Shown in pieces: positions 33,622-62,219 of a DNA stretch of 64,000 bases (position 1 is its first letter; each line of letters begins with the position of its first letter). Origin of the DNA: an uncultured delta proteobacterium (lineage in GTDB: Bacteria; Desulfobacterota; RBG-13-43-22); NCBI GenBank assembly GCA_963790475.1, contig CAWBOS010000006.1, positions 192,001 through 256,000 on the forward strand. The letters run 5' to 3'. A model generated the notes under the pieces. That model ran no database searches, was not told the origin of the DNA, and saw nothing but the letters and a program-made list of their open reading frames with translations. Both the position numbers and the translations under genes were made by a program.

Positions 33622-33915
33622 GCCGCAGACCGGCACAGACAGGACCGGACAAAACCGTGTCTCTCACAGAGCGCACAGAGGCACAGAGAAAACTAATTTA
33701 TGGATTGCCGTTGAGGGGAAGGCAATCCAAAACCAGCGTCGCCTTTCCGCGAAATAATCTCTCTCTGAGAACTCTGAGGGCTTGAGTGACCGGAGGGAAC
33801 GGGCGAGAGGAAAATCTTTATCTCTCACAGAGCTCACAGAGACACAGAGGCAAGAAAGATTTTCATTGCGTTTGAGAAGGCCGCAATTAAGACCTGTCTG
33901 TCGCCTGAAGGCGAA
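33622..33915 (+). repeat. Modular hairpin element: one full copy (33660-33810) plus the 5' arm of the next (33821-33850)
   Basis: 5' arm ctctcacagagcgcacagaggcacagaga; 3' arm tctctgagaactctgagggct..gaccggagggaacgggcgagagg. Confidence 0.85.
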
Positions 33916-34154
33916 GATGCTTCTCTGGAGTGTATATATTAATTGAGGGATTAAGATTTAATAAGTTCCGGAATCAAACAAATCAGGTATTCTCCCGATG
34001 CTGCTTGGGGCAAGGCATAAGTTGTCTTCTTGGCATTTTATGCCGATGGCTATAAGAAGGTGAGGATGGTACGATTAGCAAGGTTTGTTATAACCGGCGT
34101 CCTTCGCTCACCCCAATATCCCCGGATGATTAAAAAATTTTTTTCGAGTTTACG

Positions 34155-34811
34155 ATGATGAAAAATCGATCCACTCAAAATTGGTACAGGCAGATCAAGG
34201 TGTTATTACCTACAATACTGATCGCCTATTCAATAACATTGGCGGCTATTGTCGGAATCTCCATTTATGCAATTTCCACAGGGAGGCGAATCTGGTATTT
34301 CACGGTTGATCCGTTTCTTATTGGCAACCTGCCATTTTATGCCGGCTTTCTTTCTAATTTGGGACTGCTTTTGTGGAGTGCCAGCGCAACGGTTTGTTTT
34401 TTTAGCGCAATGATCCTGCGTGATGAAGAATTAATAAACCGATATAGGTATTTTTTTGTTATGTCTGGTCTCTTTACTTCCTTGATTATGTTTGACGGTC
34501 TCTTTCAGATGCATCGCATTTTCTATCCGAATCACCTTCATCTCTCAACTTTTATGATCTATTGCGTTTATAGTATTCTTGGACTCTGGTATCTCTTTAT
34601 TTTTAGAAAACAAATTATGGAGACTGAATATTTAATGCTTGCCTTGGCTTTAAGCTTCCTTGGGTTGGCCGTAATTATTGATACCGTGTCTATGGTACCG
34701 AGAGGTCGTACGGCGCTTTCGGATTTATTTAAATTTTTTGGAATTGTGAGCTGGTTCATCTATTTTATCCGCACTTGCCGGAAGGTTCTGAGGAATGAGG
34801 AAAAAGGATAA
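34155..34811 (+). CDS. Hypothetical 7-TM membrane protein
   Basis: 218 aa hydrophobic ORF; DP..PFYAGFLSNLG. Confidence 0.7.
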   Translation: MMKNRSTQNWYRQIKVLLPTILIAYSITLAAIVGISIYAISTGRRIWYFTVDPFLIGNLPFYAGFLSNLGLLLWSASATVCFFSAMILRDEELINRYRYFFVMSGLFTSLIMFDGLFQMHRIFYPNHLHLSTFMIYCVYSILGLWYLFIFRKQIMETEYLMLALALSFLGLAVIIDTVSMVPRGRTALSDLFKFFGIVSWFIYFIRTCRKVLRNEEKG

Positions 34812-34843
34812 AGGATCGTGGAGATTTACCTAAAACGAAAGTT

Positions 34844-35137
34844 CCTCTCTCAGAACTGTGAGGGCAAGATTGACCGGGGAGTGAGCGGCGAGAGGAAAAG
34901 TCTTTATCTCTCACAGAGCTCACAGGGGGCACGGAGATGATATTTATTGATTGCCGTTGAGGGAGGGGGCGGCAATCAATATCCATCCGTCGCCTGGCGA
35001 CGACCCGTGGTTACACGCCCAAAGGGCCAGATGGTAGGAGGAAGACAAGTCGTCTTCCCTCCTGTCAGGTATTTGTCTGTGGCAAAAGAAGCTCTGAGAA
35101 CTGAGGGCTCAATTGACCGAAGGGAACGGGCGAGAGA
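34844..35137 (+). repeat. Modular hairpin element: a 3' arm (34844-34895) and a full copy (34907-35137)
   Basis: Same arms as 33660-33810; includes the aggaggaagac-aagtc-gtcttcc module. Confidence 0.85.
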
Positions 35138-35256
35138 AAACAGGAGACGTCGGAAAATTGTGTCTAAGCACAAAGAATGGCGCCAGTTTTTCGCCTTGGC
35201 TTAAGACCAAGAATTATATCCCATTGAAATACTGATTTTTTTTATAGGCCTCCTCA

Positions 35257-35272
35257 TGGCATAGGTTTTGCT
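35257..35272 (+). promoter_or_regulatory. Sigma54 -24/-12 promoter
   Basis: TGGCATAGGTTTTGCT, GG-N10-GC. Confidence 0.7.
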
Positions 35273-35329
35273 AAATCAGGAAGAAAGCAATTATCTCACT
35301 TTATCAATACTGGAGAAAGGGAGGTTTTT

Positions 35330-36178
35330 ATGATGGTGAAGAAGACTAGGGCTTCGAAGAACAGCTTTTCAGGAAAAAGGGGTTATGGGTGGGTGCCGGA
35401 TATTCCGGATCAGAGGGATTATCTTTTAAGCGCAGTGCTTAAGGTGCCGGCCAGGCTGCCTGGCAAGGTAGATTTGCGGCCGCTCTGTTCCAAGATTGAA
35501 GATCAGGGCCAACTGGGGAGCTGCACGGCCAATGCCCTGGCCGGGGCCATCGAGTTCCTGGAACGAAAGGACAAGGTTCCTTTTCAGGATTTCAGCAGGC
35601 TCTTTATTTACTATAACGAACGGGCCTTGGAACACACCATAAACTCCGATTCGGGGGCCATGATCCGGGATGGGATCAAGACTATGGCCAAGCAAGGGGT
35701 CTGCTCCGAGAAGAGCTGGCCCTATGAGGTATCCAAGTTTAAATCTAAACCGGGACCAGCCTGCTATAAAGAAGCCTTGGAACATCAGATCACCTCCTAT
35801 CGTCGTATTCTCACCCTTGATCAGATGCGGACCTGTCTGGCCGAAGGGTTCCCTTTTATCTTTGGCTTTACCGTGTACGAGAGCTTTGAAACCCAGGAAG
35901 TCGCCCGGACCGGTGTTGTGAATATGCCCGACCATGGCGAGCAGGTGCTCGGAGGGCATGCCGTTCTCGCCGTGGGGTACGATCATTCCAAAGAGAGATT
36001 TATTGTCCGAAATTCCTGGGGAAGCGGTTGGGGCCTGAAGGGCTATTTCACCATGCCCTATAAATACCTCAGCAACCGTAACCTTTCCGACGACTTTTGG
36101 ACCATCCGCAGGGGAGAATTGATGGTTCCCAGAAAAAAGGAAAGGATTGAGGTACGAGGAAAAAGAGTTGAGGGGTGA
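35330..36178 (+). CDS. Papain-like cysteine peptidase (C1 family)
   Basis: DQGQLGSCTANA, GGHAV, RNSWG catalytic motifs. Confidence 0.92.
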   Translation: MMVKKTRASKNSFSGKRGYGWVPDIPDQRDYLLSAVLKVPARLPGKVDLRPLCSKIEDQGQLGSCTANALAGAIEFLERKDKVPFQDFSRLFIYYNERALEHTINSDSGAMIRDGIKTMAKQGVCSEKSWPYEVSKFKSKPGPACYKEALEHQITSYRRILTLDQMRTCLAEGFPFIFGFTVYESFETQEVARTGVVNMPDHGEQVLGGHAVLAVGYDHSKERFIVRNSWGSGWGLKGYFTMPYKYLSNRNLSDDFWTIRRGELMVPRKKERIEVRGKRVEG

Positions 36179-36622
36179 TCTCTCACAGAGCAGAGGGAGG
36201 CACAGAGGGGAAAAGCTCATAGCTCAAAGCTGATAGCTGATAGCGAGAAAGAACTATCAAGAGATAGCGTCATTATTTTTTCATTGCGGTCGAGAAGGAC
36301 CGCAGTTGTCTATGACAAAAGAAAAGAAGGATTTATAGCCACGGACGCACACGGACAAAGTCTGGACGAAAGATAATTTGCCTGGCCCCTACAAGGACGT
36401 GGCCAAGCAAACCCAGCCGTCGCCTGGCGGCGAACCTGGAGTTAAGTACCTGATCCATTAGGCCTTAGGTAAGCCGAAGGCTGGATGGGTTATGAAAATC
36501 GGCCTGACACCGAATTTTATAAAAAGTGGTTCCTTCTCTCTGGGAAATCTGAGGGCTCGAGTGACGGGAGGGAATGGGCGAGCGGAAAAGATCCGATCTC
36601 TCACAGGGCACGCAGAGGCACA
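36179..36622 (+). repeat. Extended modular hairpin element (36179-36586) with internal heptamer tract, plus the next 5' arm (36597-36622)
   Basis: Arms as above; agctcat/agctcaa/agctgat 36214-36244; internal modules shared with 61951-62165. Confidence 0.82.
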
Positions 36623-36709
36623 ACTAGGCATTGCGCAATGTTTGAGTTATTGACATTCTCTGAAGATGCGCTTAATATAGGCTCATAATTAAACGCTAGA
36701 GGTGCAACA

Positions 36710-36940
36710 ATGAGAATAACCGCACATATTCCGGATAATATTGCAAAAGATGTTAAGAGGTTTGCTGACAATGAAAAGATGTCGGTATCGGCGGTAATAG
36801 CCGAAGCGCTTCAATATTATGTTTACGAAAAAAAAAAGATGGAAACCGGGAAAAAAGTTTTGGCCATGATCGGCAAGGTGCACGTTTCTGAAGATGCACA
36901 TAAAGAACTTAATAAAATGAGAGCAGAGACTGAAAGATGA
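36710..36940 (+). CDS. RHH-type antitoxin
   Basis: MRITAHIPD...SVSAVIAEAL; ATGA overlap with PIN gene; TTGACA-17-TAATAT at 36650-36678. Confidence 0.8.
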   Translation: MRITAHIPDNIAKDVKRFADNEKMSVSAVIAEALQYYVYEKKKMETGKKVLAMIGKVHVSEDAHKELNKMRAETER

Positions 36941-37329
36941 TAGGTTTGGATTCGGGTTTTTTTGTTGAGCTTCTTAAGGGCAATCAACAAACCGAAAGAA
37001 TCTGGAATGACATTTTGGATGGTCAAGGTTCTGTAGTATCGTGCATTTCTTTATTTGAACTTAAGAGGCTCGGCCTGAAAGGTTTGATTGATATCAGCAC
37101 GATCGACACTATTAATGAAGCGATTATGAATATATGCAATATTGCCTGGTTAGATAATGTTACTGTTGTCAATACGGCTGCTAATTTTTCCCACGGATTG
37201 GGAATCCACATGGCTGATGCCTTGATCCTTTCAGGATTTATTAAATATGGAGTTACGAAAATATACACAACGGATCAACACATTTCTTTGTATAAGAAAA
37301 AAGGCGTGAGGGTTATTATGCTAATTTAA
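36937..37329 (+). CDS. vapC: PIN-domain toxin (VapC)
   Basis: GLDS, SLFEL, ADALI, YTTD. Confidence 0.88.
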   Translation: MIGLDSGFFVELLKGNQQTERIWNDILDGQGSVVSCISLFELKRLGLKGLIDISTIDTINEAIMNICNIAWLDNVTVVNTAANFSHGLGIHMADALILSGFIKYGVTKIYTTDQHISLYKKKGVRVIMLI

Positions 37330-37367
37330 TCCATGACTTTTTTTACTTTGTTCTTATAGGGCGCCTT

Positions 37368-37552
37368 TCAATTGACCGGATGGAACGGGCGTGAGAAAAA
37401 AGGTGAAAGGAACTAGGAGCGGGTTATGGGTGGGGATTTGTTGAGTTTGTTGAGTCAATTGGGTTCATTGAGTTATTGGGTTTAATTGGTAGGCTTGGGT
37501 ATCCTCTTTTAATACAAAAATACCGTTTGTCGTTTATCGTTCGGTGTTCGGC
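37368..37552 (+). repeat. Element 3' arm followed by 7-mer and 9-mer arrays
   Basis: tcaattgaccggatggaacgggcgtgag; ttgttgagtttgttgagtcaattgggttcattgagttattggg. Confidence 0.8.
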
Positions 37553-37701
37553 GAACCCCAATTTTCATACTTCGGGGCGGTTGGCAAAGGTCTGAGGGTT
37601 TTATATAAAAAAACTCCGCACAAACTGTACGGGTTTTTTATCGGTAATAAATTGTTTGGGATAAGAATTTTATTAGTGTTTTTTCCTTGTCCGGGTAGCG
37701 G

Positions 37702-37910
37702 CTAACTCTTAATTCTCAAATTTTCTAAAGTTGGAACCGTTTTAAAGAGATCGCTTTCCGTTGCCTTTCGGTCGAAGGTGTAAGTTACCACAGCCTTTTC
37801 ACGATGATTGGAAAGACCGATAAGATAGTCGGCAAAGTCAGCCTTTCAGTCTGCCGCTGGTCATTGCGGACAATATAGCGAATAAGAACATTGGTATCCA
37901 ATCCAATCAA
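37702..37910 (-). pseudogene. VapC with large internal deletion and frameshift
   Basis: MIGLDTNVLIRYIVRND joined out of frame to KADFADYLIG...TYTFDRKA. Confidence 0.8.
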
Positions 37911-38140
37911 GACGATGCCCCTTTAGCTATTGCCTTATCCATATCAGCCAAGGATAGGGCTTTTTGGGGTTTAGGGACCATCCCCTTCAAACTGGATATC
38001 GTTTCCACCACAGGAATGATCTCCAACCTTTCATTGTCAATGACAATAAATTCCAGTTTACTGCCCGGGATAATTTTCAGTCGTCTCCTGGCTTCAGCCG
38101 GTAGAGTCACTTGTCCTTTGCTGGTTACCGTGGCAATCAT
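37907..38140 (-). CDS. AbrB/MazE-type antitoxin
   Basis: ATVTSKGQVTLPAEARRRL..PGSKLEF. Confidence 0.9.
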   Translation of the reverse strand: MIATVTSKGQVTLPAEARRRLKIIPGSKLEFIVIDNERLEIIPVVETISSLKGMVPKPQKALSLADMDKAIAKGASS

Positions 38141-38216
38141 TTCTTACCTCTTCTATATGTTCCTTACTTTTTAACCTTACTTTATCCAAATAAAATATTT
38201 TGTCAAGAGAATCCAT

Positions 38217-38293
38217 GTCCGGAGGGGATGGGCGAGAGAAGAAAATAGTGCCCTGAGGGACTGACGATAGGAGGAAGACAGGTCGTCTTCCTC
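38217..38293 (+). repeat. Element 3' arm plus gccc-n4-ggg / ggaagac-n5-gtcttcc module
   Basis: Matches 62141-62219 and 35017-35062. Confidence 0.8.
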
Positions 38294-38377
38294 GTTTCCA
38301 GCCGTAGTCGTTGGTACAAGGAAAATCCTCATTGCTAAAATTCCGAATGTAGTGTATTGTAGTACAAGAGGTGGGAA

Positions 38378-38596
38378 ATGAGAAACGTATTATCTGTGAG
38401 CCTTCCGGGAAATTTGGTGAAAGACCTTAATAGTTTTGCCAAGTCAACAGGAAGGAATAAAAGCGACATTTTAAGAGATTCGTTGGGCAATTACCTTTGG
38501 GAAATTAAATTCAAGGAGACCAAGAAACGCCTTTCCGCCAAAGCAAAGAAAGCCGGAATCATAACCGAAGATGATGTTTTTAAAACGGTATCATGA
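38378..38596 (+). CDS. RHH/CopG antitoxin
   Basis: LSVSLP...GRNKSDILRDSL...AGIITEDDVF. Confidence 0.85.
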   Translation: MRNVLSVSLPGNLVKDLNSFAKSTGRNKSDILRDSLGNYLWEIKFKETKKRLSAKAKKAGIITEDDVFKTVS

Positions 38597-39000
38597 AAGC
38601 CGCTTTCGATACTAATGTCCTAGTTGCGGCATTCCTTACCGACGGTTTATGCTCCAAGCCCCTTTTAAGAGCACGCCGCAAGGAATTCTCCTTAATTCTG
38701 TGCCCTTATATTTTGCAGGAGTTTCAAAAATTTCTTCAAGCAAAAATTAAGGCCTCAAGCCGGGAAATAGAAATGGCGGTTAAGCTCCTTGAAGAAGGGG
38801 CTTTTGAGATAAAGCATCCTTCGATGATTATTGAAAGGACATGCCGAGATATCGATGATGATAATATTCTCAGCTGTGCCTTGGCTTCAGAATCGGAGTA
38901 TTTGGTGACCGGAGATGATGATTTATTAACACTTCATAAGTATGGAAAAACAAAAATCATCAAACCTCGACAGTTTGAAGATCTTTTTGTCGACAATTAA
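38593..39000 (+). CDS. PIN-domain toxin (PIN_3 type)
   Basis: FDTNVLV, CRDIDDD, LVTGDDDLL. Confidence 0.9.
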   Translation: MKAAFDTNVLVAAFLTDGLCSKPLLRARRKEFSLILCPYILQEFQKFLQAKIKASSREIEMAVKLLEEGAFEIKHPSMIIERTCRDIDDDNILSCALASESEYLVTGDDDLLTLHKYGKTKIIKPRQFEDLFVDN

Positions 39001-39053
39001 AAGAATTGCCCAACCACGTTCTTCGGTTATCGGTGGCAAAAAAAGCCTTTCTA

Positions 39054-39485
39054 TCCACGGACCCACACAGACAGAAACTGGGACAATAGCTTATCTCTCG
39101 CGGAGCACGCGGAGGCACAGAGATTTTTTTCATTGCGGTTGAGGGACCGCAATGAAAAACACCCCGTAGTCTGATTTCCCTTTCTCAGAAAATCAGACTA
39201 TAAGTAACACACTCTGCAAACTCTGAAGGCTTGAGCGAAGCGGGCGGGAGAAAAGGGGTTTTGAAGTCAAAATGAAAAATGGAAAGTGCAGTTTGGTCTG
39301 TTTGGTCTATTGAGTCTATTGAGTTTGTTGAGTTCATTGCGTTGAGGAGAGAGGAAGAAGGAGAAAGGACAGGAAACACGGGGAAGAATGGATTGATGGA
39401 ATAATGGAAAAGGCAACAAGGATCAACCCAAACCACTCAAGTAACTCAATAACCCAACTAACTCAAGCAACCCAATAAATTCAAC
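39054..39485 (+). repeat. Modular hairpin element (39094-39252) followed by stacked 7/9/8-mer arrays with an inverted 9-mer pair
   Basis: 39291-39345 (ttgagtctattgagtttgttgagttcattg) is complementary in type to 39424-39485 (actcaataacccaactaactcaa). Confidence 0.82.
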
Positions 39486-39908
39486 GGTGCCGGGTTCAGA
39501 TGAATTTACCCTCTTAACAATAAAAAACCCCCCACATAATGCAAGCCTTCCCAATGACCGTCCACATAATAATCCTTCACACTCTCCGTATAACCATTCC
39601 TTGCCTCATGTAGATCTCCCTCGACTGGTGTTACAATCGAAGTATTTGGTTCCACACCTACAGGTGGTAGGGAGAAATTTAACCACGCAACCACACTGAG
39701 ATCATTAGTTGCTTCCAGTCCTGCCTTTGTCGGTGGCAAAAGAGAAGTATTAAAAGACTTTTTAGACACAGAACCAAGGAAGGAGAAACGAAGAAACAAG
39801 GTATGGAACGATAGCCTAAAAAATATTGACACTTTATGGTATAAAGTGTACCCTTTGCTCAGAATATAAAAGAATATTTCCCATTGCTGTAAAATTGAGG
39901 TGATCTAA

Positions 39909-40145
39909 ATGATAGAGGTAAATGCCAAAAAGGCTCGTGGGCAGTTAAGCTCCTTGCTTAAACAAGTCGAGGAAGGAGAAGAAGTGATCATTTCCCGTAA
40001 TGGAAAAAGGATTGCCCGGATGGTTTCTTTAATAGAATCCCCCAAGCGACTTCCAAGCTTGAATGATTTCAGGGCAAAGGTCAGAATTAATGGTGAGCCG
40101 CTGAGTGGAATCGTGGTGCAATCCCGGAAGGAAGAACGCTATTGA
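39909..40145 (+). CDS. Phd/YefM antitoxin
   Basis: VNAKKARGQLSSLLKQVEEGEEVIISRNGKRIARM; upstream palindrome acactttat-ggt-ataaagtgt over a TTGACA. Confidence 0.88.
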   Translation: MIEVNAKKARGQLSSLLKQVEEGEEVIISRNGKRIARMVSLIESPKRLPSLNDFRAKVRINGEPLSGIVVQSRKEERY

Positions 40146-40212
40146 TGATGGTATTGAAAAAAGTTCACAATCGTTACGAGCCTATTGAGGCATCATCCTA
40201 GGGAGGTAATCG

Positions 40213-40668
40213 TTGATGGTTTATGTAGATACCAGTCTTCTTGCCGCCTATTATTCCCCTGAACCTTTGAGCGGGAAAGCAGAGGAATTTCTAATTGGTC
40301 AGGAGGGGTTGGCCATCAGCAGTCTGACCGAAATTGAGCTTTTTTCAGCCCTTTCAAGAAAGGTGCGGGAGGAAGGACTTCATCAAATGGATGCTAAAAA
40401 GATTGCTTCTCGGTTTCTGTCCCATGTGGATGGGAATTTTTTCAAATATCTTACAGTAGAAACCAGACATTATCGACTGGCACGTGATTGGTTGGGGTTG
40501 TTCAACACCAGTCTGCGAAGCCTGGATGCCTTGCATTTAGCCGTAGCCTCATCACAAGGATTAGCTGTCGCTACCTCCGATCTTAAATTTTCCCAATCAG
40601 CTCGCGCAATGGGTCTGGAAGTTCTGTTGATTTCGTTTGAGGAGCCGAATGCCGAGAAAAGCATTTAA
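40213..40668 (+). CDS. vapC: PIN-domain toxin (VapC)
   Basis: YVDTS, TEIEL, LRSLDALHLA, TSD. Confidence 0.9.
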   Translation: MMVYVDTSLLAAYYSPEPLSGKAEEFLIGQEGLAISSLTEIELFSALSRKVREEGLHQMDAKKIASRFLSHVDGNFFKYLTVETRHYRLARDWLGLFNTSLRSLDALHLAVASSQGLAVATSDLKFSQSARAMGLEVLLISFEEPNAEKSI

Positions 40669-40710
40669 AAGTATCTGTGACCAGGGCTTCAGTCTAATAC
40701 TCTTCTATAT

Positions 40711-41052
40711 CTATATGGATAGATGAACCTTCATGGCCTTGTCAATCGCTTCTATATCTTCGAGTTCCAGTTTCCCTATGAATTTTATCAACCTCCTTCG
40801 ATCAAGGGTCCGAATCTGATCGGCCTTAACCTTGGAGTCTTTGGGCAGGTTGCCTTTTCCCTGAGGGATGAAAACCTCAAAAGGGTAAATCTTCTCCAAG
40901 TTTTTAGAGGTAACCGTAAGAACGGTCACTGTGCTTGAATACAGGTTATTGACGTCATTGGAAACCACCACCACCGGCCTGGTTTTTGCTATTTCGTTCC
41001 CGATTGCCGGATCTAGACCGGCCAGAAAGACATCGCCTCGCTTAATATTCAT
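40711..41052 (-). CDS. mazF: MazF/PemK toxin
   Basis: RGDVF..LDPAIGNEIAKTRPVVVVSND...DQIRTLDRRRL. Confidence 0.92.
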   Translation of the reverse strand: MNIKRGDVFLAGLDPAIGNEIAKTRPVVVVSNDVNNLYSSTVTVLTVTSKNLEKIYPFEVFIPQGKGNLPKDSKVKADQIRTLDRRRLIKFIGKLELEDIEAIDKAMKVHLSI

Positions 41053-41296
41053 CCCAGCCCTCCAAGTCGATAATGAAAAAATCTTGCGAAATTTCCCGAC
41101 CTTCTCCGTTGCGGACTTGGTAGCCTTCCTTCAGTATTTGTTCTTGTCGTTCCCTCCGCATTTTTTTCAATTTTTCTCTCAAGGTCATTGCAATAAATTG
41201 ACTTTTTTTGCGTGGTTCAACAAATTGATTTAATTCCTCCACTAGTTCATCCGGCAAAGTAATATTCAGCCTGGTGGTCTCCATAATGCACCTCAT
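41042..41296 (-). CDS. RHH/CopG antitoxin
   Basis: RLNITLPDEL...KSQFIA...LKEGYQ. Confidence 0.85.
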   Translation of the reverse strand: MRCIMETTRLNITLPDELVEELNQFVEPRKKSQFIAMTLREKLKKMRRERQEQILKEGYQVRNGEGREISQDFFIIDLEGWDEY

Positions 41297-41422
41297 TTGA
41301 TGTATTAATAATACATATTAATTTACACATTCAATTAAATTTTATCAAGATAAATTTGGAACACCTTAATAGGAAAAAAAAACGAAGATTGGTGACTGAG
41401 CAACCTATGAAAAGAGTTTTAT

Positions 41423-41518
41423 AGTCAAAATGAAAAATGCAAAAGATAAAGTGCAAAATGAAAAAAGGGTAAAGGGGAGGGTGGTGGGTTCATAGTCAGA
41501 GAGCTGGGTTCAGAGACC
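41423..41518 (+). repeat. Heptamer arrays (agtcaaa/atgaaaa/atgcaaa type, then G-rich)
   Basis: agtcaaaatgaaaaatg identical at 39265-39281; related tract at 48341. Confidence 0.78.
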
Positions 41519-41944
41519 TCAACATATCTTTTCCCCTTGTGCGGCTACTTTTAACCTTGCATCATAGGTCAAAAGCAGCAATTCAGGAAAATGGTCTTGA
41601 AGACCCTTGGCAGCAGATAGATGCCAGAGGTCGGCTCCTCCGAGGGGCCATTTATTGGACAGATTCCTGATGATATTCCATTGGGGGATGATAAATAACC
41701 GTCTCCAAGGACCATTTTCCAAAACTTCAACTGCTGCATCCACAAGAAGCGCGGCCATGTCTCTTTCGCGCCGAATTCTCGATAAAACCGCAAGCACTTC
41801 TGCATAGGATAAATGGGAAAGGAAATGGTGTCCTGATTGACCGGCCCATTTCTGGGCGTTCTGGCTGTGTTCATCTAATAGGAGGGCTGAAAGTACGGCC
41901 GAGGCATCCCAGTAGATGACTACCGGTTTTTCTTCCCTTGTCAT
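41519..41944 (-). CDS. vapC: PIN-domain toxin (VapC)
   Basis: YWDASA, SYAEV, GADLWHL, TYD. Confidence 0.88.
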   Translation of the reverse strand: MTREEKPVVIYWDASAVLSALLLDEHSQNAQKWAGQSGHHFLSHLSYAEVLAVLSRIRRERDMAALLVDAAVEVLENGPWRRLFIIPQWNIIRNLSNKWPLGGADLWHLSAAKGLQDHFPELLLLTYDARLKVAAQGEKIC

Positions 41945-42228
41945 CGGTCTCTTCCCTCTTGAAGATATCTTTGGGCTAAACCTTCCGGTGCGGGAAGGGG
42001 CGGGGGGAGACGTCTTCCGTAATTTTTTGACAAGGGTTCGGTCAACCCTTGTTCTTCCAGGATTCGGATACGATCCTCAAGGGAAAGTTTTTTCTGAGAA
42101 AAAGGGATTATTCTCCCTATCGGCTTGCCCCGTTCGGTAATAATGACCTCCTGACCTTCTTTAACTTTTTTCATTACTTTGCTCAAATTAATTTTGGCAT
42201 CCCGTATTCCAAAGGTTTTCGATAGCAT
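41941..42228 (-). CDS. Phd/YefM antitoxin
   Basis: GIRDAKINLSKVMKKVKEGQEVIITERGKPIGRI. Confidence 0.9.
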   Translation of the reverse strand: MLSKTFGIRDAKINLSKVMKKVKEGQEVIITERGKPIGRIIPFSQKKLSLEDRIRILEEQGLTEPLSKNYGRRLPPPLPAPEGLAQRYLQEGRDR

Positions 42229-42315
42229 AGTTCGTTCCTTTTTTGGTGACTTTGTAGTTACAATTTTAATGCAGTCTATGTAGTCATCTAGGTCAAGTTA
42301 TTTAATAAGATAACA

Positions 42316-42572
42316 GTGAAAGGGAAAAGGGGAAAGGGGAGAGGGGTTGGTTACGGGTTACAAGTTGCGGATTCATTGAAAAGTCTTGGGTTGAGGACTG
42401 AGGAGAAAGGATTTTTTACGCCAAATCCAACAAATTACAGTCAGTCAATAAAGGAAACAGACCAAACGACCAGACAGATAAAACAGACCAAACGACCAGA
42501 CAGATAAAACAGACCAGAAAGACCAAAAAAACGAACAGACCAAAAAAAAACCAGATAGACTCAATTAACTCT
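42316..42572 (+). repeat. G-rich heptamer tracts followed by C/A-rich 9-mer tract with a perfect 26-bp tandem duplication
   Basis: aaacagaccaaacgaccagacagata at 42455-42480 and 42481-42506. Confidence 0.85.
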
Positions 42573-42801: not shown

Positions 42802-43686
42802 ATGATGATGGACAAACAAACCAAACTGAGAACCGCATTATTTTTTCTGATAACAGTCATTATCGGCCTGTTGATTTTATTTCCTCTAAAGGCACTTTTG
42901 TATTCGGAATCCAAAGGGATGTATTATGAATATTATTCCCATATTCTTTTGATACCCCTGGTGAGCGCCTACTTGCTTTATAACCGTCGCCAAGAAATAT
43001 GGGAATTCAAGAAAACCGCCATCCCGGTGTCGGGAGTTTTGGTTGGCGTTATTGGTATTATAGGCTACGGGACAGCCTTGGTACAAGATCAAAACATGGG
43101 ATTCATTAATGCCGTCGCCGGGCAAATCACTGGCTTACTTATTGCCTGGTTGGGAGCCTTCCTGCTTTTCTGGGGGACGGCCGCTTTTCGGCAGGCCCTT
43201 TTCCCTTTGCTGTTCCTTTTCTTTATGGTGCCGGTCCCCATGGATCTGATGGACGCCTTTATTTATGCCCTCCAGTGGGGGTCTTCCGAGGCTACAGGGC
43301 TGATCTTCAGTGTCCTCGGCACCCCTTATTACCGGGAAGGCTTCATCTTTCAACTGCAGACGGTCACCATCGAAGTAGCCAGGCAGTGCAGCGGCATCCG
43401 CTCCACCATGGCCATGGTCATCACCGGTGTCCTGGCCGCCCACCTTTTTTTGCGCGACAACGGGAAGAAGCTGATCCTGATGTTGACCATATTACCAATA
43501 ACTGTTTTTAAAAACGGCCTAAGGATCGTCATCCTGACGCTTTTGGCCATTCATGTTGACATGCGTTTCCTGACCGACAGCTTTTTGCACCATTCCGGGG
43601 GGTTTTTGTTTTATATACCGGGACTTTTAATTTTTGGGGGAATCCTCTTGCTTTTAAGAAGAGTTGAAAAAAGGACTGAGGACTGA
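42802..43686 (+). CDS. xrt: Exosortase (EpsH family)
   Basis: YSH, FMVPVP, CSGIRS (Cys), NGLRI (Arg), LHH (His). Confidence 0.92.
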   Translation: MMMDKQTKLRTALFFLITVIIGLLILFPLKALLYSESKGMYYEYYSHILLIPLVSAYLLYNRRQEIWEFKKTAIPVSGVLVGVIGIIGYGTALVQDQNMGFINAVAGQITGLLIAWLGAFLLFWGTAAFRQALFPLLFLFFMVPVPMDLMDAFIYALQWGSSEATGLIFSVLGTPYYREGFIFQLQTVTIEVARQCSGIRSTMAMVITGVLAAHLFLRDNGKKLILMLTILPITVFKNGLRIVILTLLAIHVDMRFLTDSFLHHSGGFLFYIPGLLIFGGILLLLRRVEKRTED

Positions 43687-43706
43687 GTGCTTAGGATTGA
43701 GGGGTG
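43672..43706 (+). repeat. Heptamer repeat aggactg/aggattg spanning the exosortase stop
   Basis: 43672-43683 is the exact reverse complement of 44271-44282. Confidence 0.85.
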
Positions 43707-43769
43707 AATTAGATAGAAGACCGGGAATGATTTTAAGGGACATTTTCAAGAATTTGAAAGGAAAGAATT

Positions 43770-44162
43770 GTGGAAAAGAAAAAAATTGAAAAATTTGAAG
43801 ATTTGATTGCCTGGCAGAAAGCCCGCGAATTGACAAAAATTATTTACCAAATTACGAACTACGGGAAGTTTTCGACGGATTTTGGGGTAAGGGATCAAAT
43901 CCGAAGATCAGCCGTTTCCAATATTGCTGAAGGATTCGAGCGGGGAGGTCGGGCGGAATTCCACCAATATTTAGTTATTGCAAAAGGCTCTTGCGCGGAA
44001 TTAAGATCCCAATTATATGTTGCCTTGGATGCCGGGTATCTTGACATAGTCACCTATCAAAAAGTAAATGCCTTGGCTGAAGAAACAAGCCGTTTGATAG
44101 GTGGACTTAGATCAGCAGTCTATCGCCAGAAAACTGTTGATCGTGTAAAGAGAACAAATTAA
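43770..44162 (+). CDS. Four-helix-bundle protein (23S rRNA IVP / Avd-like)
   Basis: [13 protein letters not shown]...[17 protein letters not shown]...[12 protein letters not shown]. Confidence 0.9.
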
Positions 44163-44259
44163 GATAAGAGGGAAAACATAACAAAAAGAGTTTATTTTGG
44201 TATTCGGAATTGAAGAAAACGAACCTTATTCCCGGAGCATAAGGTCTGATGAATAAGTT

Positions 44260-44282
44260 CTCAGTCCATCGTCCTCAGTCCT
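44260..44282 (+). repeat. Heptamer repeat ctcagtc just before the prsK start
   Basis: ctcagtc catcgtc ctcagtc ct. Confidence 0.85.
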
Positions 44283-44288
44283 AAAAAA

Positions 44289-46510: not shown

Positions 46511-46868
46511 ATGGAGAGTTATAAGGAGTTGATCGCTTAATCAAAAAGGTTATCAATTATCCCTTCAGGTTTATGAGATTACAAAAAGATTTCCGAAAGA
46601 AGAGATTTATGGAATAATTTCTCAAATGAGGAGGAGCGCCGTTTCGATACCCTGTAACATCGTGGAAGGATATCGACGAGGACACAGAAAGGAACATATA
46701 CAATTCCTTTATATGTCTTATGGGTCTTGCAGTGAATTGGAGACCCTCCTTTCTTTATCTAAAAATCTTGGCTTTTTAGAACAGCACTTTTTTGATAAGA
46801 TTTATTCCTTACAAGAAGAAACTTCGAACTTATTGAAAAGTTTAATTGTATCCTTATCCCGGAAGTGA
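46511..46868 (+). pseudogene. Four-helix-bundle gene with +1 frameshift
   Basis: MESYKELIA then TAA 46538-46540; removing one A gives AYQKGYQLSLQVYEITKRFPKEEIYGIISQMRRSAVSIPCNIVEG. Confidence 0.85.
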
Positions 46869-50459: not shown

Positions 50460-50507
50460 AATTTGGACAACTGCCCTTCCATACTTGGAACGATGTCTTT
50501 TCCACCA

Positions 50508-54576: not shown

Positions 54577-54601
54577 GTAATCCCGCCAAAAGGCGGGATC
54601 G
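54577..54601. repeat. REP-like hairpin
   Basis: atcccgcc-aaaa-ggcgggat. Confidence 0.5.
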
Positions 54602-54657
54602 GCTTCCTTGAACTTGAACAAAATTGAACCTTTTTCGAAGCTCTCATAATATCATAA

Positions 54658-56106: not shown

Positions 56107-56681
56107 TTTTTCTATTCCTCAACGGGTGTGCATTCTTGGATAAAATTCGGGAACCGGATCAGCCGGCAATCTCCCGGGCGGAAAAGGAAAAAACCTTAAG
56201 AAGGGAAGCGGCCATTGCCGAAGAGAAAAAAAGGGAAGAGACGGCCAGAGCCCATCTCCTCAAGGGGCGGAAACTTTTTGCCTATGGGGATTTTGAAGGA
56301 TCGTATTGGGAAAATTATACAATAATCACTTTTTTTCAGGGCCAGTCCTCGATGGAGGAGGCTATTTTTATGCTTGGCTTGATCTATAGCCATCCAGGCA
56401 ACCCCAATAAAGATCTTAGCAGGTCCCTTGACTTTATGAAAAGGGTGGTTAAAGAATATCCAAACAGCTTTTTCGGGCAAGAGGCCAAAGCCTGGATAAA
56501 CATTCTCCTAGTGAATGAAAAAGTAGGCAAAGAAAATGAAAAATTGGTGAAAGAAAATGAAAAATTGATAAAAGAACATGAGAAATTGATGAAAGAACAT
56601 GAGAGAATGTCCAAGATGTTGGAAGAGTATAAACAGGTGGATATCGAGATAGAAGATAAAAAGAGAGAGAAAGGAAGATAA
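56049..56681 (+). CDS. Lipoprotein with TPR-like and coiled-coil regions (QseG/YfhG-like position)
   Basis: Lipobox LNGC; coiled-coil tail ending KQVDIEIE; lies between kinase and regulator. Confidence 0.7.
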   Translation: MGRKQIRARKHFLFCFAGLIFLFLNGCAFLDKIREPDQPAISRAEKEKTLRREAAIAEEKKREETARAHLLKGRKLFAYGDFEGSYWENYTIITFFQGQSSMEEAIFMLGLIYSHPGNPNKDLSRSLDFMKRVVKEYPNSFFGQEAKAWINILLVNEKVGKENEKLVKENEKLIKEHEKLMKEHERMSKMLEEYKQVDIEIEDKKREKGR

Positions 56682-56689
56682 TAGAGTCC

Positions 56690-58063: not shown

Positions 58064-58144
58064 CCGGAAGGTCATTTCCCAATGTCGGATAAAAAAAGGC
58101 CGTATCGGTAGACATGGCCTTTCCTTTTTACTGTTTTTCAAATC

Positions 58145-58597
58145 TTATTCTACGGTAATCTTGATTTGTTTTTCCTTGGCCTTTTCACTCTTGGGAAGTG
58201 AAATGGTCAGGACTCCTTCTTTATGAGAGGCCTTTACATTTTTGGTATCCACATCGGTGGTCAGTCGGATACTCCTGGAAAACGAACCGTACCGCCGTTC
58301 GATCAAGTGATAGGACTCGTCTTTTTCTTCTTTTTCCTGCTTCTTTTCCCCTTTAATGGTCAGCATATCCCCGCTGATGGTTACTTCCACTTCTTTGGAA
58401 CTTAATCCGGGAATTTCAGCGGTGACCACTATGTTTTCTTTTGTTTCCTTGACATCTAAAGCTGGCACCCAAGCCGCTTCGGATAGAATCGGGAAACCGG
58501 AATCTCCGAAAAATCGACCCCACAAGTCATCCATCTCTTTTCTTAACTTGGACAAAGTCTTTGTTCTTTCCCAGGGAACAAGCTCAAACATGGTCAC
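58145..58597 (-). CDS. Hsp20 small heat-shock protein
   Basis: PALDVKET, AEIPG, LTIKGEK, ERRYGSFSR, GVLTISLPK. Confidence 0.93.
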   Translation of the reverse strand: MTMFELVPWERTKTLSKLRKEMDDLWGRFFGDSGFPILSEAAWVPALDVKETKENIVVTAEIPGLSSKEVEVTISGDMLTIKGEKKQEKEEKDESYHLIERRYGSFSRSIRLTTDVDTKNVKASHKEGVLTISLPKSEKAKEKQIKITVE

Positions 58598-58709
58598 ACC
58601 CCTTTTTGTTTTTTTTGTTCATAAATCGAAGCACGAAATATTTTATATTTAGGTAATCATTTCTTGGCGTTTTGTCAAGATAGGGCCCACAACCCAATAT
58701 GAACCGTGA

Positions 58710-60479
58710 CTATTTTCCAAATAAGGACAGTTGTTTTTTCTTGGGTTTCAGCGGGTGTTTGGTCCCCCGGATTTCAATCTGTTTTTTTAAGAGGGGTTCA
58801 ATGTTTTCTAAAAACGGAGAAGGGGATTGAACCCAGTTCCGGCCGAACAGGGTCCGTTTTCTGGCCCAGGTTAAAATCACTTTTTCTTTAGCCCGGGTCA
58901 AGCCTACATAAAATAGACGCCGTTCTTCTTCCGGATCCGATTGCTTAAGTAAAGAAAGGGGGAGAAGATTTTCCTCACAGCCGGCAATGAATACTATGGG
59001 AAACTCAAGACCTTTAGCGGCATGAAGGGTCAGTAGTTTGACGGTTTCCTGATCCGGTTCATAAGTGTCCAAACCGGTTTGTATTGAAAGTTCCTCTATA
59101 AATTCTTTCAAGGACCCTCTAAAGGCTGCCGCCCAGAGGCGAAGTTTTTTGATTGCTTCTTCCCCTTCCGCCGAAGCCGGGTGTTTTTCAGAAGGGTTTG
59201 TAAAAATTACTTTTCCCAAAGCCGCCAGCGGTGAAATATCCCAGGAAGGAAGGGATTTGAGGAGGGTCAATAAGGCTCGAATTTCCGGTCGTTCCACCCA
59301 GTGCACTTCCTGAATTTTTTTAAAGGGGATTCCTTTTTTGGAAAAGATACCGGCCAAAACCTCTCCCTGGGCATGAAGCCGGTAAAGGACGGCAAAGTCG
59401 GCAAAGCTCCTGGGCTGGTTATGCCGGAAATCGGAAAATGAATCCATTCCTTTGGATGACAGGCTCAGGCCTCCCATTTCTTCTTCAATAATCCGGGATA
59501 TATATTCCCCTTCTTCTTCGGCAGAAGGCAGGGCAATGACATTCAAGGAGGGCTCCCCTTTAAGGCTGGAGATTAGCCTGACCGGGCTCTTGCAGATCGT
59601 TCCTTCAATAACCTGCGAGGAAGCAGCCAGAACAGTCTGATTCAACCGAAAGGTCTCTTCAAGGGTAACTTCCGTCAAAGAGGGGTTTTCCTGTTGGAGA
59701 CGGGGGAAAAACTCAGCGCTTGCCCCCCGGAAGCCATAAATGGCCTGGTTGGGGTCTCCAATAACCATCCATTCTCCATCCTTTCGGGTCAATAATTCGA
59801 AGAGACGGTATTGGGAAGGATTAATGTCCTGAAATTCATCAATGAATACATAGGGAAAATGGGCCTGAAGGTCTGCTCTGAGGTCAGGACTTCCTTCCAA
59901 AAGAGTGACGGCCTGAATGAGGAGTTCATCAAAATCCCAAAATAGGCCAGCGCCAAGTTTTTCCTGAAAGGCTTGATAACAAGAGGGCCAATTGGGATAG
60001 GTTTCCCAAGGGGGCGGTGTTTCTGGTGAATCCGGCAGGATGAGGGCATTTTTAGCCCAGGAGATGCGGCGGCCCAATTCTTTCAAAGAGGGGATTGGGA
60101 AGTCCGGGAAATATTGCCGGACCGTTTCTCGGAGTAACGCCAAGGCTTCATTTTCGGACAGTAATTGATAAGGAGTAGAAAGGTTCTCCCGCAGAAAGCG
60201 GAAACAAAACCCATGAAATGTGGAAATCCAAGGGGGGGAAAATTGGTCGATCTCTTGGCCAAGTTGATCTATCCGAGACCGCATCTCCTCAGCGGCTTTG
60301 TTGGTAAAGGTGACGGCCAGTATTTGATCAGAGCGGGCGATCCTGCTTGCAATCAGGTGGGCAACGCGATAGGTCAGGGTTCTGGTCTTCCCGGTCCCGG
60401 GTCCGGCCAAAACGATCAAGGGGCCTCCCTGATGTCTGACCACTTTCTCTTGTGAGGGTGTCAGGGACGAAAGATCCAT
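58710..60479 (-). CDS. UvrD/Rep-family helicase; probable start ATG 60479
   Basis: AGPGTGKT, TFTNKAA, DEFQD, GDPNQAIYGFRG, TLHAAKGLEF, EERRLFYVGLTRA. Confidence 0.92.
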   Translation of the reverse strand: MDLSSLTPSQEKVVRHQGGPLIVLAGPGTGKTRTLTYRVAHLIASRIARSDQILAVTFTNKAAEEMRSRIDQLGQEIDQFSPPWISTFHGFCFRFLRENLSTPYQLLSENEALALLRETVRQYFPDFPIPSLKELGRRISWAKNALILPDSPETPPPWETYPNWPSCYQAFQEKLGAGLFWDFDELLIQAVTLLEGSPDLRADLQAHFPYVFIDEFQDINPSQYRLFELLTRKDGEWMVIGDPNQAIYGFRGASAEFFPRLQQENPSLTEVTLEETFRLNQTVLAASSQVIEGTICKSPVRLISSLKGEPSLNVIALPSAEEEGEYISRIIEEEMGGLSLSSKGMDSFSDFRHNQPRSFADFAVLYRLHAQGEVLAGIFSKKGIPFKKIQEVHWVERPEIRALLTLLKSLPSWDISPLAALGKVIFTNPSEKHPASAEGEEAIKKLRLWAAAFRGSLKEFIEELSIQTGLDTYEPDQETVKLLTLHAAKGLEFPIVFIAGCEENLLPLSLLKQSDPEEERRLFYVGLTRAKEKVILTWARKRTLFGRNWVQSPSPFLENIEPLLKKQIEIRGTKHPLKPKKKQLSLFGK

Positions 60480-60539
60480 AAAAAAAGAACAGGTCGGGGT
60501 TTTCCTGACCTGTCCCAAATAAAAAACTAACCGGAAAGG

Positions 60540-60725
60540 CTAAACTTCTTTTACGGTAATAGCCCCGGCTTCACAAACTTCAACACAGCTTTCGCAGCCC
60601 AGACATTCGTCCATATTAACGGGTACGGCTTTGTTGTCCTGAAGCTCAAAAACACTCACCGGGCAGGTATCCACGCAATTGGAATCTCCTGTGCATTTAT
60701 CGGCGTCAACCGTTACTTCAAACAT
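60540..60725 (-). CDS. Dicluster ferredoxin
   Basis: CTGDSNCVDTCP and CLGCESCVEVC. Confidence 0.92.
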   Translation of the reverse strand: MFEVTVDADKCTGDSNCVDTCPVSVFELQDNKAVPVNMDECLGCESCVEVCEAGAITVKEV

Positions 60726-61059
60726 TGATTCTTCCTCCTTGTATTAGAGATAATTTTTCACCAAAAACCAAGGGTTACAAGTCCTTGGGATTATCTTGGG
60801 GTGGATTTAAGGTAGTAAGCCTTCAAATAATCCGGCAGCTTAGAATATTTTTCTCCAAAGGTCAAACAATTTTTTCACCGGAGGAATACTCCGGGCAGAC
60901 AGGTAAAAAAACATGAAGAACCAATAAGAGTTAGAGCTTATCATAAGTCTATTTTGCCCAACTCACAGATATAACCATTAGCCCGGAGGAGTTAAAAAGA
61001 TTGACCGAATTTGCCCCTGTGGTAGATAATGGGACTAACGAAAACCCAAAGGAGGTGCC

Positions 61060-61839
61060 TTGATGCTGGATAAAATGGAAGCCCTTCGCTATGACCGGCA
61101 AATCATGATTAACCATTTTGGGGATGAAGGACAGGAAAAATTAAGAAAAAGCCGGGTCCTGATTGCCGGGGCGGGTGGTCTGGGATCGGCGGCCGCCTAT
61201 TATTTAACCGCTGCCGGAGTGGGCGCACTTAGGATCGTGGACAAGGATAGGGTGGATCTCAGCAACCTAAACCGACAGATCCTCCACTGGGAACCGGACG
61301 TTGACCGGCTCAAGGTGGAATCGGCCAAGGAAAAACTATCCAAACTTAACTCATGGATTGACCTGGATATGCGGAAAGACGATATTAACGAGGAGACGCT
61401 TCCTCAATTGATGGAGGGGTGCGACTTGGTCCTGGACGGCCTGGATAATTTTCCGACCCGTTATTTGATCAACCAACAAATATTACGCCAGGGGATCCCT
61501 TTTATCTATGGAGGTATCCTGGGCATGATGGGCATGGCTACAATGATCCGGCCCGGACAGACTCCTTGTTTGAAATGCCTTTTCCCGCAAGCCCCTCCGC
61601 CTCAGAAGTTCCCGGTCTTAGGGACCACACCGGGAATCATCGGACTGATTGAAGCCAATGAAGCCATTAAGTATCTGGTAGGTTTTGGAAAGCTTCTTGT
61701 CGGCCGGCTGCTCGTTTATAACGGGTTGGATATGCGTTTTTCAGAAGTCCGGATTGAATCCAATCCCGAATGTCCGGTCTGTGCAAAAGTAGATAAAAAT
61801 AAGGGAGAGACGATTCCAAATGTTGACCAAGGGAGATAA
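61060..61839 (+). CDS. moeB: MoeB/ThiF adenylyltransferase
   Basis: RYDRQ, GAGGLG, SNLNRQ, DN, CLKC, CPVC. Confidence 0.85.
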   Translation: MMLDKMEALRYDRQIMINHFGDEGQEKLRKSRVLIAGAGGLGSAAAYYLTAAGVGALRIVDKDRVDLSNLNRQILHWEPDVDRLKVESAKEKLSKLNSWIDLDMRKDDINEETLPQLMEGCDLVLDGLDNFPTRYLINQQILRQGIPFIYGGILGMMGMATMIRPGQTPCLKCLFPQAPPPQKFPVLGTTPGIIGLIEANEAIKYLVGFGKLLVGRLLVYNGLDMRFSEVRIESNPECPVCAKVDKNKGETIPNVDQGR

Positions 61840-61916
61840 ATAGACTAAGGTGTATAAAAAATTAATAGGGTCTAAGAAATTCCTTTGTAACATTTTATCT
61901 ATTCTCAATACGTTTT

Positions 61917-62219
61917 GCCACCGACCCACAAAGACTGGACCAAAGGCCTATCTCTCACAGAGCGCACAGAGGCGCAGAGAATTGATATTTTCTCATTGCC
62001 GGTGAGGGGCCAGCAATGAAAAACCAGTCATGCGCTATCGCGCACCCTGGCCGAAGGCCTGAGGGGTTATGAATAATCGGCCTCTCGCCGATTTTTCATA
62101 AAATATGGTCGTTTTTCTCTGAGAACTCTGAGGGCTCAAGAGACCGTAAGGGAACGGGCGAGAGGAAAAATTAGTGCCCGGAGGGCCTGACGGTAGGAGA
62201 AGACAAGTCGTCTTTCTCC
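61917..62219 (+). repeat. Stand-alone complete copy of the modular hairpin element
   Basis: Leader gccaccgac.., 5' arm 61951-61980, internal hairpins, 3' arm 62116-62165, ggagaagac/gtctttctcc module. Confidence 0.85.

Follow-up and report, generated by a model that had tools for sequence, protein, structure and literature searches.

The window analysed here, a stretch of 64,000 nucleotides (nt) from contig CAWBOS010000006.1 of an uncultured delta proteobacterium, carries a family of long intergenic hairpin elements whose terminal arms enclose inner hairpins and, in some copies, genes. Pfam families divide the window into a polysaccharide-synthesis cluster at 0.6-30.7 kb, a type II toxin-antitoxin (TA) island at 32.1-42.3 kb, and an exosortase / PEP-CTERM locus at 42.8-58 kb. 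An original prediction, made from the letters alone, had described the elements as modular hairpins able to carry cargo, acting either as a vehicle of the REPIN (a hairpin of repetitive extragenic palindromic, REP, sequences) or MITE (miniature inverted-repeat transposable element) kind or as an undescribed structured RNA.

Anatomy and folding of the window copies

Each element is described here by its 5' arm, a first inner hairpin (HP1), a second inner hairpin (HP2), a last inner hairpin, and a 3' arm. The 5' arm is composed of TCTCTC followed by three CACAGAG units, and the 3' arm of two CTCTGNG units and a conserved tail that ends in GGGCGAGAG. A repeat search of the 64-kb window located seven 5' arms, all on the + strand (33659, 33820, 34906, 36178, 36596, 39093, and 61950) and spread over five intergenic spacers, and a hidden Markov model (HMM) trained on the arms of other genomes recovered the identical seven, again on the + strand only. 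When up to three mismatches were allowed, a pattern search matched the 5' arm four times in the window and never in 100 shuffles, while the 3' arm pattern found five matches where none was expected. Full 3' arms were placed by HMM at 33752, 35092, 36533, 39207, and 62111 (E 1e-5 to 1e-14), a weaker match covers the full arm at 34836-34894 (E 0.02), and a still weaker one at 37368-37396 (E 0.83) covers only its terminal half. These matches define the following features:

33627..33810, + strand: E1, complete and gene-less; CAGAC/CGGAC-repeat module 33627-33658, 5' arm 33659-33689, HP1 33698-33732, HP2 about 33738-33760, 3' arm 33752-33810; fold z -2.0 (+) and -3.7 (-); arm duplex -30.0 kcal/mol, z -3.7
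33820..34895, + strand: E2, split, with a membrane-protein gene inside; 5' arm 33820-33849, HP1 33859-33893, HP2 33899-33917, then about 920 nt with the gene (34155-34811), the 3' half of the last inner hairpin, and the 3' arm 34836-34895 (E 0.02)
34906..35137, + strand: E3, complete and gene-less; a GGAAGAC hairpin and a GTCTGTGGCAAAA outer-arm module both lie inside it; 3' arm 35092-35137; fold z -3.1, -4.3; arm duplex -23.0 kcal/mol, z -2.5
36178..36586, + strand: E4, complete and gene-less with extra modules, 408 nt; 3' arm 36533-36582; fold z -3.2, -2.7; arm duplex -30.3 kcal/mol, z -3.2
36596..37396, + strand: E5, with vapBC inside; 5' arm 36596-36622, degenerate HP1, sigma-70-like promoter 36650-36678, ribbon-helix-helix (RHH) antitoxin 36710-36940, PIN toxin 36937-37329, terminal half of a 3' arm 37368-37396 (E 0.83)
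38203..38300, + strand: orphan terminal half of a 3' arm (38203-38242) and a GGAAGAC hairpin module of a type also found 3' of E7
39050..39252, + strand: E6, complete and gene-less; CACGGAC-type module upstream, 5' arm 39093-39126, 3' arm 39207-39250, the arms being an A-to-G / T-to-C variant; fold z -6.0, -5.7; arm duplex -31.2 kcal/mol, z -4.6
61911..62246, + strand: E7, complete and gene-less; 5' arm 61950-61983, 3' arm 62111-62164; fold z -4.6, -8.3

The five gene-less copies (E1, E3, E4, E6, and E7) fold into long imperfect hairpins with z-scores of -2.0 to -8.3 on either strand, and the duplexes between their own arms have energies of -23 to -31 kcal/mol (z -2.5 to -4.6). With seven 5' arms in one orientation, no match in shuffled sequence, and five copies that fold as hairpins, the arm-defined copies first proposed prove to be real. 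Their positions were confirmed and their extents enlarged: E7, which occupies most of the spacer between the ThiF and DUF4301 genes, is nested in an additional outer stem at 61911-62246 (a folded stretch of 356 nt, -131.3 kcal/mol, z -4.97, with none of 100 shuffles as good), and extra modules lie upstream of the 5' arm and downstream of the 3' arm, or within the element in E3 and E4. A papain-family cysteine peptidase gene (35330-36178) lies between E3 and E4, with its stop codon immediately adjoining the start of the E4 5' arm.

Unpaired arms had been said to flank genes in two copies, E2 and E5; the flanking stands in both, but the pairing has to be described separately. The E2 arms do pair moderately (duplex -22.0 kcal/mol, z -1.8, with 14 of 300 shuffles equally good), whereas the remnant after vapBC is not complementary to the E5 5' arm (duplex z +0.4). 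The E2 membrane protein, 218 aa long, belongs to a set of 44 proteins at E<=0.001, itself counted, and no Pfam or NCBIfam family matched it.

The HP1 loop is nearly fixed as TGAGAGG and the loop of the last inner hairpin is its complement, CCTCTCA, with further hairpins between them. The earlier claim that stems are kept while sequences differ holds for these inner hairpins and fails for the arms. HP1 sites were picked solely by their loop motif; 8 of the 36 are false, lying within palindromic arms. Double changes occur at all 14 stem pairs, and 83.9% of the cells are paired, compared with 55% after shuffling (none of 500 shuffles reached the observed value) and 27-52% when the pairing is slid. 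In the arms of nine minimal elements, by contrast, none of the 25 predicted pairs carries a compensated change, and over 40 elements the own-arm duplexes average -30.3 kcal/mol against -31.4 kcal/mol for cross-element duplexes, 98% of permutations being at least as stable. The arms are conserved as sequence and not as helix, and such invariance without covariation is what would be expected of a protein recognition site. Between the two strands of 41 elements, the fold energy is better on the + strand in 22 and on the - strand in 19 (p 0.68), and G-U pairs number 212 and 210, so that neither strand is marked as a functional RNA; compensated HP1 stems are also typical of DNA palindromes.

Two further layers of nesting were observed in other genomes. 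In loci L002, L044, L046, L054, L055, L072, L102, and L122, the TGAGAGG loop of HP1 contains, inserted at a single point, a small secondary palindrome of the form CCCCGGTTAAAT ... ATTTAACNGGGGCAGG or of a GGAATAT type; it is a hairpin element in its own right, with the loop of the first as its target. In L058, L088, L102, L111, L010, L070, and L112, a conserved GTGATCACGGGG...TTTT follows the stop codon of unrelated genes and its complement CCCTGTGATCA lies beyond the element; the two appear to form an outer hairpin layer with the element set in its loop.

Distribution and genomic positions of the family

Genome contigs were scanned with a degenerate 5'-arm pattern, and full flanks were obtained for 80 loci, all from genomes other than that of the window. 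The 5' arm occurs in at least 122 stretches, mostly metagenome-assembled genomes (MAGs) of Desulfobacterota, under the taxon labels Desulfobacterales, Desulfobacteraceae, Desulfuromonadales / Geobacter / Oryzomonas, Syntrophobacterales, and Thermodesulfobacteriota. A few matches fall in bacteria of the Planctomycetota-Verrucomicrobiota-Chlamydiota (PVC) group, Treponema, and others, and some of these outlying matches are probably due to chance. Arm HMMs distinguished 144 5' arms among the matches listed, 98 of them with a partner arm within 650 nt: 66 have an asymmetric 3' arm and 32 a palindromic one, 31 have none, and 15 lie too near a contig end. The 69 HMM-defined arm pairs listed span 66-608 nt, the sole longer one being E2 of the window, at 1075 nt.

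The arm repeat has been catalogued before. The genome paper of Geobacter bemidjiensis lists, in its Table S6, 68 "nonanucleotide repeats" (Gbem_R9001-R9068), and the portion of the paper that treats them classes them as direct repeats, says that their implications "remain to be elucidated", and states no function (Aklujkar 2010, PMC2996986). Compared by eye, the consensus TTT[WCCTCTGTG(R)(Y)]nGTGAG is the reverse complement of the 5' arms of the window, with small departures in single units; the arm itself reads CTCAC, then CACAGAGG units, then AAA. The repeats resemble the present family further in being intergenic, multi-copy, often two to a spacer, and mostly 3' of genes; they differ in that the hairpin model, the asymmetric 3' arm, the inner modules, and the enclosed gene are all absent from that portion of the description (PMC2996986). 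Literature searches on the motif, on REPINs and their transposases in Deltaproteobacteria, on GxxExxY, and on PDDEXK_3/PF13366 returned the 2010 list, whose supplementary files 13-15 fell outside the search, as the only description of the element. Searches of Rfam at gathering scores gave no match in the window or in 20 loci (111,148 bases), and in E-value mode only a single match to Pab19, at 28.4 bits where 55 are needed; a blastn search of plasmid and phage records with E7 gave none. The original prediction, which a match to a known IS end or an Rfam family was to overturn, meets no match in Rfam, though its arm was already on record. The kind of element is known (intergenic palindromic repeats, MITE-like) and its arm has been catalogued since 2010; as far as the literature searches show, the nested architecture with fixed loops, the phylum-wide spread, and the tie to GxxExxY genes are new.

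Most members of the family stand singly amid housekeeping genes, and the flanking genes are ordinary and varied, including smc-ftsY, gatB, opp, and fatty-acid and cofactor genes. For 41 elements with asymmetric arms, the nearest upstream open reading frame (ORF) within 500 nt shares the strand of the element in 22 cases and opposes it in 8, and the same-strand ORFs mostly stop 7-34 nt ahead of the 5' arm. The 3' end of several elements lies 1-7 nt from the next start codon. Among 25 elements with two neighbours, 12 are in sense and 4 in antisense to co-directional genes, 8 lie between convergent genes, and 1 between divergent genes; in our own tally of Table S6, 28 of the G. bemidjiensis spacers are co-directional, 11 convergent, and 3 divergent.

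Orthologous sites in different MAGs show both persistence and change. The element persists at smc-ftsY, after gatB, and at oppA-oppB, and the parts shared between the sites match or exceed the conservation of the coding flanks (97% versus 86-88% in L017 and L044). Its inner content differs, with lengths of 96 versus 251 nt after gatB and 48 versus 252 nt at smc-ftsY, and further pairs of 83 versus 92 nt and 303 versus 367 nt. The check for empty and filled sites proposed at the outset yielded one pair: oppB and oppC overlap (ATGA) in L035, and a 186-nt arms-only element stands between them in L059, starting 9 nt past the stop codon and ending 6 nt before the ATG. The change would have run from the empty to the filled state.

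GxxExxY genes and a proposed origin of the hairpins

Genes of the GxxExxY family (PF13366, TIGR04256) were found by tblastn at six places in the fetched loci, and all six stand behind or between CACAGAG-type arms:

L083: GxxExxY gene between arms, 301..898
L118 and L119: one GxxExxY gene on one contig, enclosed by arms
L097: GxxExxY gene behind an arm; the sequence covers the 5' side only
L035: GxxExxY gene in palindromic arms of 33 nt, 91% complementary
L059: GxxExxY gene in palindromic arms of a CACAAAG variant
L020: GxxExxY gene in arms of 36 nt, 83% complementary, with the HP1 loop TGAGAGA

In L083, L118/L119, and L020, the arms, HP1, and the last hairpin are the same as those of the gene-less copies, and the gene follows the early hairpins and precedes the last one. 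The foreign gene of E2, which comes after HP2 and before the 3' half of the last hairpin, occupies the same slot as the GxxExxY gene of L083 and L118/L119. The genes of L020 and L059 lie 1.2-2.2 kb from the pattern match by which these loci were fetched, so they were not selected for. The arm as ribosome-binding site of the GxxExxY gene itself was considered and dropped, being true in L035 only.

Eight plasmid or chromid GxxExxY genes outside the phylum were also examined. CACAGAG / CTCTGTG arms flank the genes of Bacteroides finegoldii (z -7.7) and Bernardetia (z -4.7) on either side, so that GxxExxY genes inside such arms occur on plasmids of Bacteroidota as well. The Gemmatirosa gene is preceded by a single unit and followed by a full CGCAGAGG hairpin, and the Sphingomonas gene has a variant arm on the upstream side only. 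All six non-phylum genes with annotated neighbours sit between co-oriented genes, such as fabD-fabG. Very short spacers around GxxExxY genes were noted in several phyla, in L126 (a Sphingomonas plasmid record, at fabD-fabG), L123, L125, L127, L128, and L129. The family is very abundant, with at least 7,998 clusters at E <= 1e-10 among the 8,000 candidates listed, and its function is entered as unknown in a table row for GxxExxY / PDDEXK_3 (PMC3424549). A search for related solved structures found none.

We consider that the gene-less copies of the window have about an even chance of being MITE-like deletion derivatives of a selfish GxxExxY hairpin cassette. The full-length cassette would consist of an arm, hairpins, a GxxExxY gene of about 125 aa encoding a protein of the PD-(D/E)XK nuclease fold, a hairpin, and an arm, and in E2 and E5 its gene slot would now be held by the membrane-protein gene and the vapBC pair. 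The GxxExxY protein, a putative nuclease, may recognise the invariant arms or the fixed loops and spread the cassette without target-site duplication. Insertion inside operons could be tolerated if the arms close into a stem in the transcript and so place the stop codon of the upstream gene beside the start codon of the downstream one; the purine-rich 3' end (GAGAGA/G) might serve as a ribosome-binding site, and the stem, by analogy with the intervening sequences (IVSs) of rRNA, might be cut by RNase III. The proposal starts from observations, namely the anatomy, the distribution, the association of genes with arms, the deletion variants, the one empty/filled site, and the persistence at orthologous sites. 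It agrees with the MITE or REP-like half of the original prediction, in that the elements are multi-copy and intergenic, have inverted-repeat ends, and include deletion variants as well as gene-carrying copies with the same ends. The arms do enclose cargo, as had been claimed, but the recurrent cargo elsewhere is GxxExxY alone and a general vehicle is not borne out; since only E2 of the 69 listed pairs exceeds 608 nt, the slot seems to have been taken over secondarily by the membrane-protein gene and by vapBC. In L071, about 500 nt beyond a 5' arm that has early hairpins but no partner, there is the apparent start of a transfer-messenger RNA (tmRNA) gene, with an integrase farther on, and the rest of that element may have been displaced by an island.

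Several findings weigh against the GxxExxY cassette. The target duplications that the original prediction had proposed to look for were not seen, nor was any defined target motif, at the ends of the 41 elements or at the oppB-oppC insertion. The window itself holds no GxxExxY gene or remnant, the best tblastn match having E 0.5 (33.5-39.5 and 61.8-62.4 kb). Four of the six GxxExxY associations were ascertained through the arm, by whose motif the loci had been fetched, and four of the eight plasmid genes have other repeats or none in place of CACAGAG arms. The GxxExxY gene might just as well be a passenger homing into hairpins that were already there, and the AlphaFold model of its protein, built on a 30-sequence alignment, reached a mean pLDDT (predicted local distance difference test) of 55.3, too poor to use. 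Additionally, the cassette leaves the role of the conserved HP1 loop unexplained, and conservation above that of the coding flanks, together with orthologous persistence, also fits a function for the host.

Such a function is the subject of a less likely though plausible alternative, in which the elements are cis elements serving the host in the manner of REP sequences or bacterial interspersed mosaic elements (BIMEs): the hairpins would protect mRNA 3' ends, give RNase III sites, couple translation, or bind a nucleoid protein, and GxxExxY genes, TA pairs, and small genes would merely lodge in them. Starts 7-34 nt after stop codons, 3' ends 1-7 nt ahead of start codons at several loci, and the rarity of divergent spacers (1 of 25, and 3 of 42 in G. 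bemidjiensis) speak for it, as do the higher conservation of the element than of its coding flanks, the fixed HP1 loop on covarying stems, the persistence at smc-ftsY, after gatB, and at oppA-oppB, and the recurrence in L004 and L060 of TA cassettes after unpaired 5' arms. The orientation to transcription, however, is not fixed, 4 of 16 co-directional cases being antisense; neither folding nor G-U use differs between the strands; inner content is freely lost (96 versus 251 nt, 48 versus 252 nt); copy number and presence vary among related genomes; and service to the host, taken alone, hardly accounts for one arm sequence recurring next to one gene family in distant phyla. A strand-specific structured non-coding RNA, either a cis-regulatory leader or a small RNA with the arms as closing helix, is very improbable. 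Significant folds, HP1 covariation, and the complementarity of the HP1 and last-hairpin loops agree with an RNA, yet no Rfam family matches, the closing helix lacks covariation, the + and - strands fold alike, inner modules are lost, gained, and reordered, and the elements lie in both orientations relative to genes. The undescribed RNA under structural selection that had been put forward is not supported in that form: its arms do not covary, its strands fold equally, and its HP1 covariation fits DNA palindromes.

For a mobile origin of another type the evident candidate is one gene upstream of the cluster, although no link between it and the elements was found:

30996-31961, + strand: gene of a protein like the REP-associated tyrosine transposases (RAYTs), 321 aa, with a Y1 (IS200-like) domain (Pfam Y1_Tnp 6.5e-12) and a DnaA C-terminal helix-turn-helix

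That a Y1 (HUH) transposase-like protein of this kind moves or maintains the hairpins, as in REPIN-RAYT systems, is improbable. The gene adjoins the cluster, 1.7 kb upstream, and no target duplication is seen; the seven copies all point the same way, along what is probably the leading strand (GC skew +0.059, with 31 of the 34 long ORFs on the + strand), an arrangement that would suit single-strand transposition. Against this, the flanks of the gene (30700-31020 and 31940-33000) contain no arm or hairpin module, and the protein reaches 70.7 bits for NCBIfam REP_Tyr_transpos, below the cut-off of 80. A homologue is found in none of the 122 arm-bearing loci listed, which is a weak test because a RAYT gene is usually present in one copy per genome. 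REP superfamilies are defined, in the passage of PMC3733652 on their classification, by an unpaired GTAG or CGTC tag, and neither the arms nor HP1 bear one; HP2 was considered as a CGTC-tagged REP and dropped because its CGTC is paired in the stem. Apart from the nearness of the gene, nothing was found to support a REPIN link to the Y1 transposase. An array of integron-like attC sites capturing gene cassettes such as TA pairs and small genes is scarcely credible. It would account for same-orientation copies with TA cassettes and gene-less units between them, and for folded imperfect palindromes of variable length, but Pfam scans of the 56 larger ORFs of the window detected no integrase family, the element ends carry no GTTRRRY-type core, and most family members stand singly amid housekeeping genes.

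Other cassettes of the window and comparison with known systems

A cassette of like design with a different arm family lies in the exosortase region:

43672..44282, + strand: cassette with arms of GGACTGA repeats (43672-43701 and 44254-44282), between epsH and prsK
43770-44162: gene of a "23S rRNA IVS protein" (four-helix bundle) in the GGACTGA arms; duplex -64.7 kcal/mol, z -5.0

The GGACTGA arms comprise 12 nt with 100% and 23 nt with 74% complementarity. Three genes for IVS proteins (PF05635, TIGR02436) are present in the window, amid co-oriented exosortase and polysaccharide genes; around the other two (46626-46868 and 9067-9432) no inverted repeats were found, and no IVS-protein remnant was detected within the window elements. 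In L018, an IVS-protein gene (3347-3604) is enclosed by yet another pair of arms, at 3276-3298 and 3777-3799.

The TA island itself (32126-42228) uses both strands and includes a MazF-type toxin with its antitoxin, ParE/Phd, two RHH-PIN pairs, two Phd-PIN pairs, and a second MazF-type pair; a MazE-type antitoxin at 37907-38140 stands alone, its toxin partner seemingly lost. Many spacers, among them 10218-10496, 32000-32130, 32780-32945, 37440-37500, 39290-39480, and 42300-42560, are filled by short tandem units of 7-9 nt (AACCTCG, TTGAGTNN, GACCAAAC, and purine-rich runs of the GAGGA type), some of which have inverted partners on the opposite strand and are similar to other repeat families of G. 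bemidjiensis. Within the polysaccharide cluster, an ORF of 1287 aa (25445-29308) with glycosyl-hydrolase and DUF2341 domains contains tandem repeats of 270-273 nt at 27313-28305 and a pair of 300-nt repeats 2 kb apart. Searches of the window for tRNA, tmRNA, and rRNA genes returned none.

A wider version of the GxxExxY cassette is offered more tentatively. The arms and the TGAGAGG / CCTCTCA hairpins may be the cis sites of an undescribed minimal mobile element whose sole gene is the 125-aa GxxExxY and which ranges from Desulfobacterota to Bacteroidota and Gemmatimonadota; in it an IVS-like stem, holding stop and start codons together and supplying the ribosome-binding site, would make insertion in operons harmless, gene-less hairpins, those of the window included, would be the MITEs, and the IVS-protein cassettes would form a sister class. 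If so, this would provide the first function for a very large protein family. Few of the common intergenic palindromic repeats have a known origin, and here an arm unexplained since 2010 is tied to one very abundant family of proteins. Should the link be causal, it would reveal a new minimal selfish element, account for GxxExxY genes inside operons (fabD-fabG, oppA-oppB), and supply a testable model for neutral insertion within an operon. Hairpins of this type also break assemblies and yield spurious small ORFs, and modelling them would improve the annotation of Desulfobacterota genomes.

Among known systems, the pneumococcal BOX elements and the cyanobacterial STRR heptamer repeats are built of modular short units, intergenic, and hairpin-forming. 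The elements described here resemble them in the variable number of short units, the intergenic position, and the capacity to form hairpins, and differ in sequence, to which they are unrelated; to our knowledge, no BOX or STRR repeat encloses a gene. The likeness to REP/BIME sequences and REPIN-RAYT systems lies in multi-copy intergenic palindromes found mostly after genes, in mosaics and clusters, in vertical and long-lasting inheritance, and in a Y1 gene nearby, but the present elements are untagged, far longer (66-608 nt), and nested, with arms of tandem 8-9-nt units.

MITEs with an autonomous partner, of which Correia, ERIC, and Chunjie are examples, share with this family the inverted-repeat ends common to gene-less and gene-carrying copies, the insertion into operons, and the empty/filled pair. 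The family departs from them in having no target-site duplication, in a candidate partner that is a 125-aa PD-(D/E)XK protein and not a known transposase, and in fixed inner hairpins with conserved loops. The intervening sequences of 23S rRNA, described in the section of PMC4990558 devoted to them as having a 28-bp terminal stem, possibly an S23p ORF, and an RNase III cut, differ in that the copies of the window lie between protein-coding genes and not in rRNA, and that the arm family and the usual cargo (GxxExxY) are others. Like the elements here, for which stems of about 25-30 imperfect pairs are predicted, they are inserts of 400-600 nt with complementary ends, a stem of about 25-30 bp, possibly one small ORF, and a host transcript that stays functional, and one of the three IVS-protein genes of the window is itself bracketed by arms.

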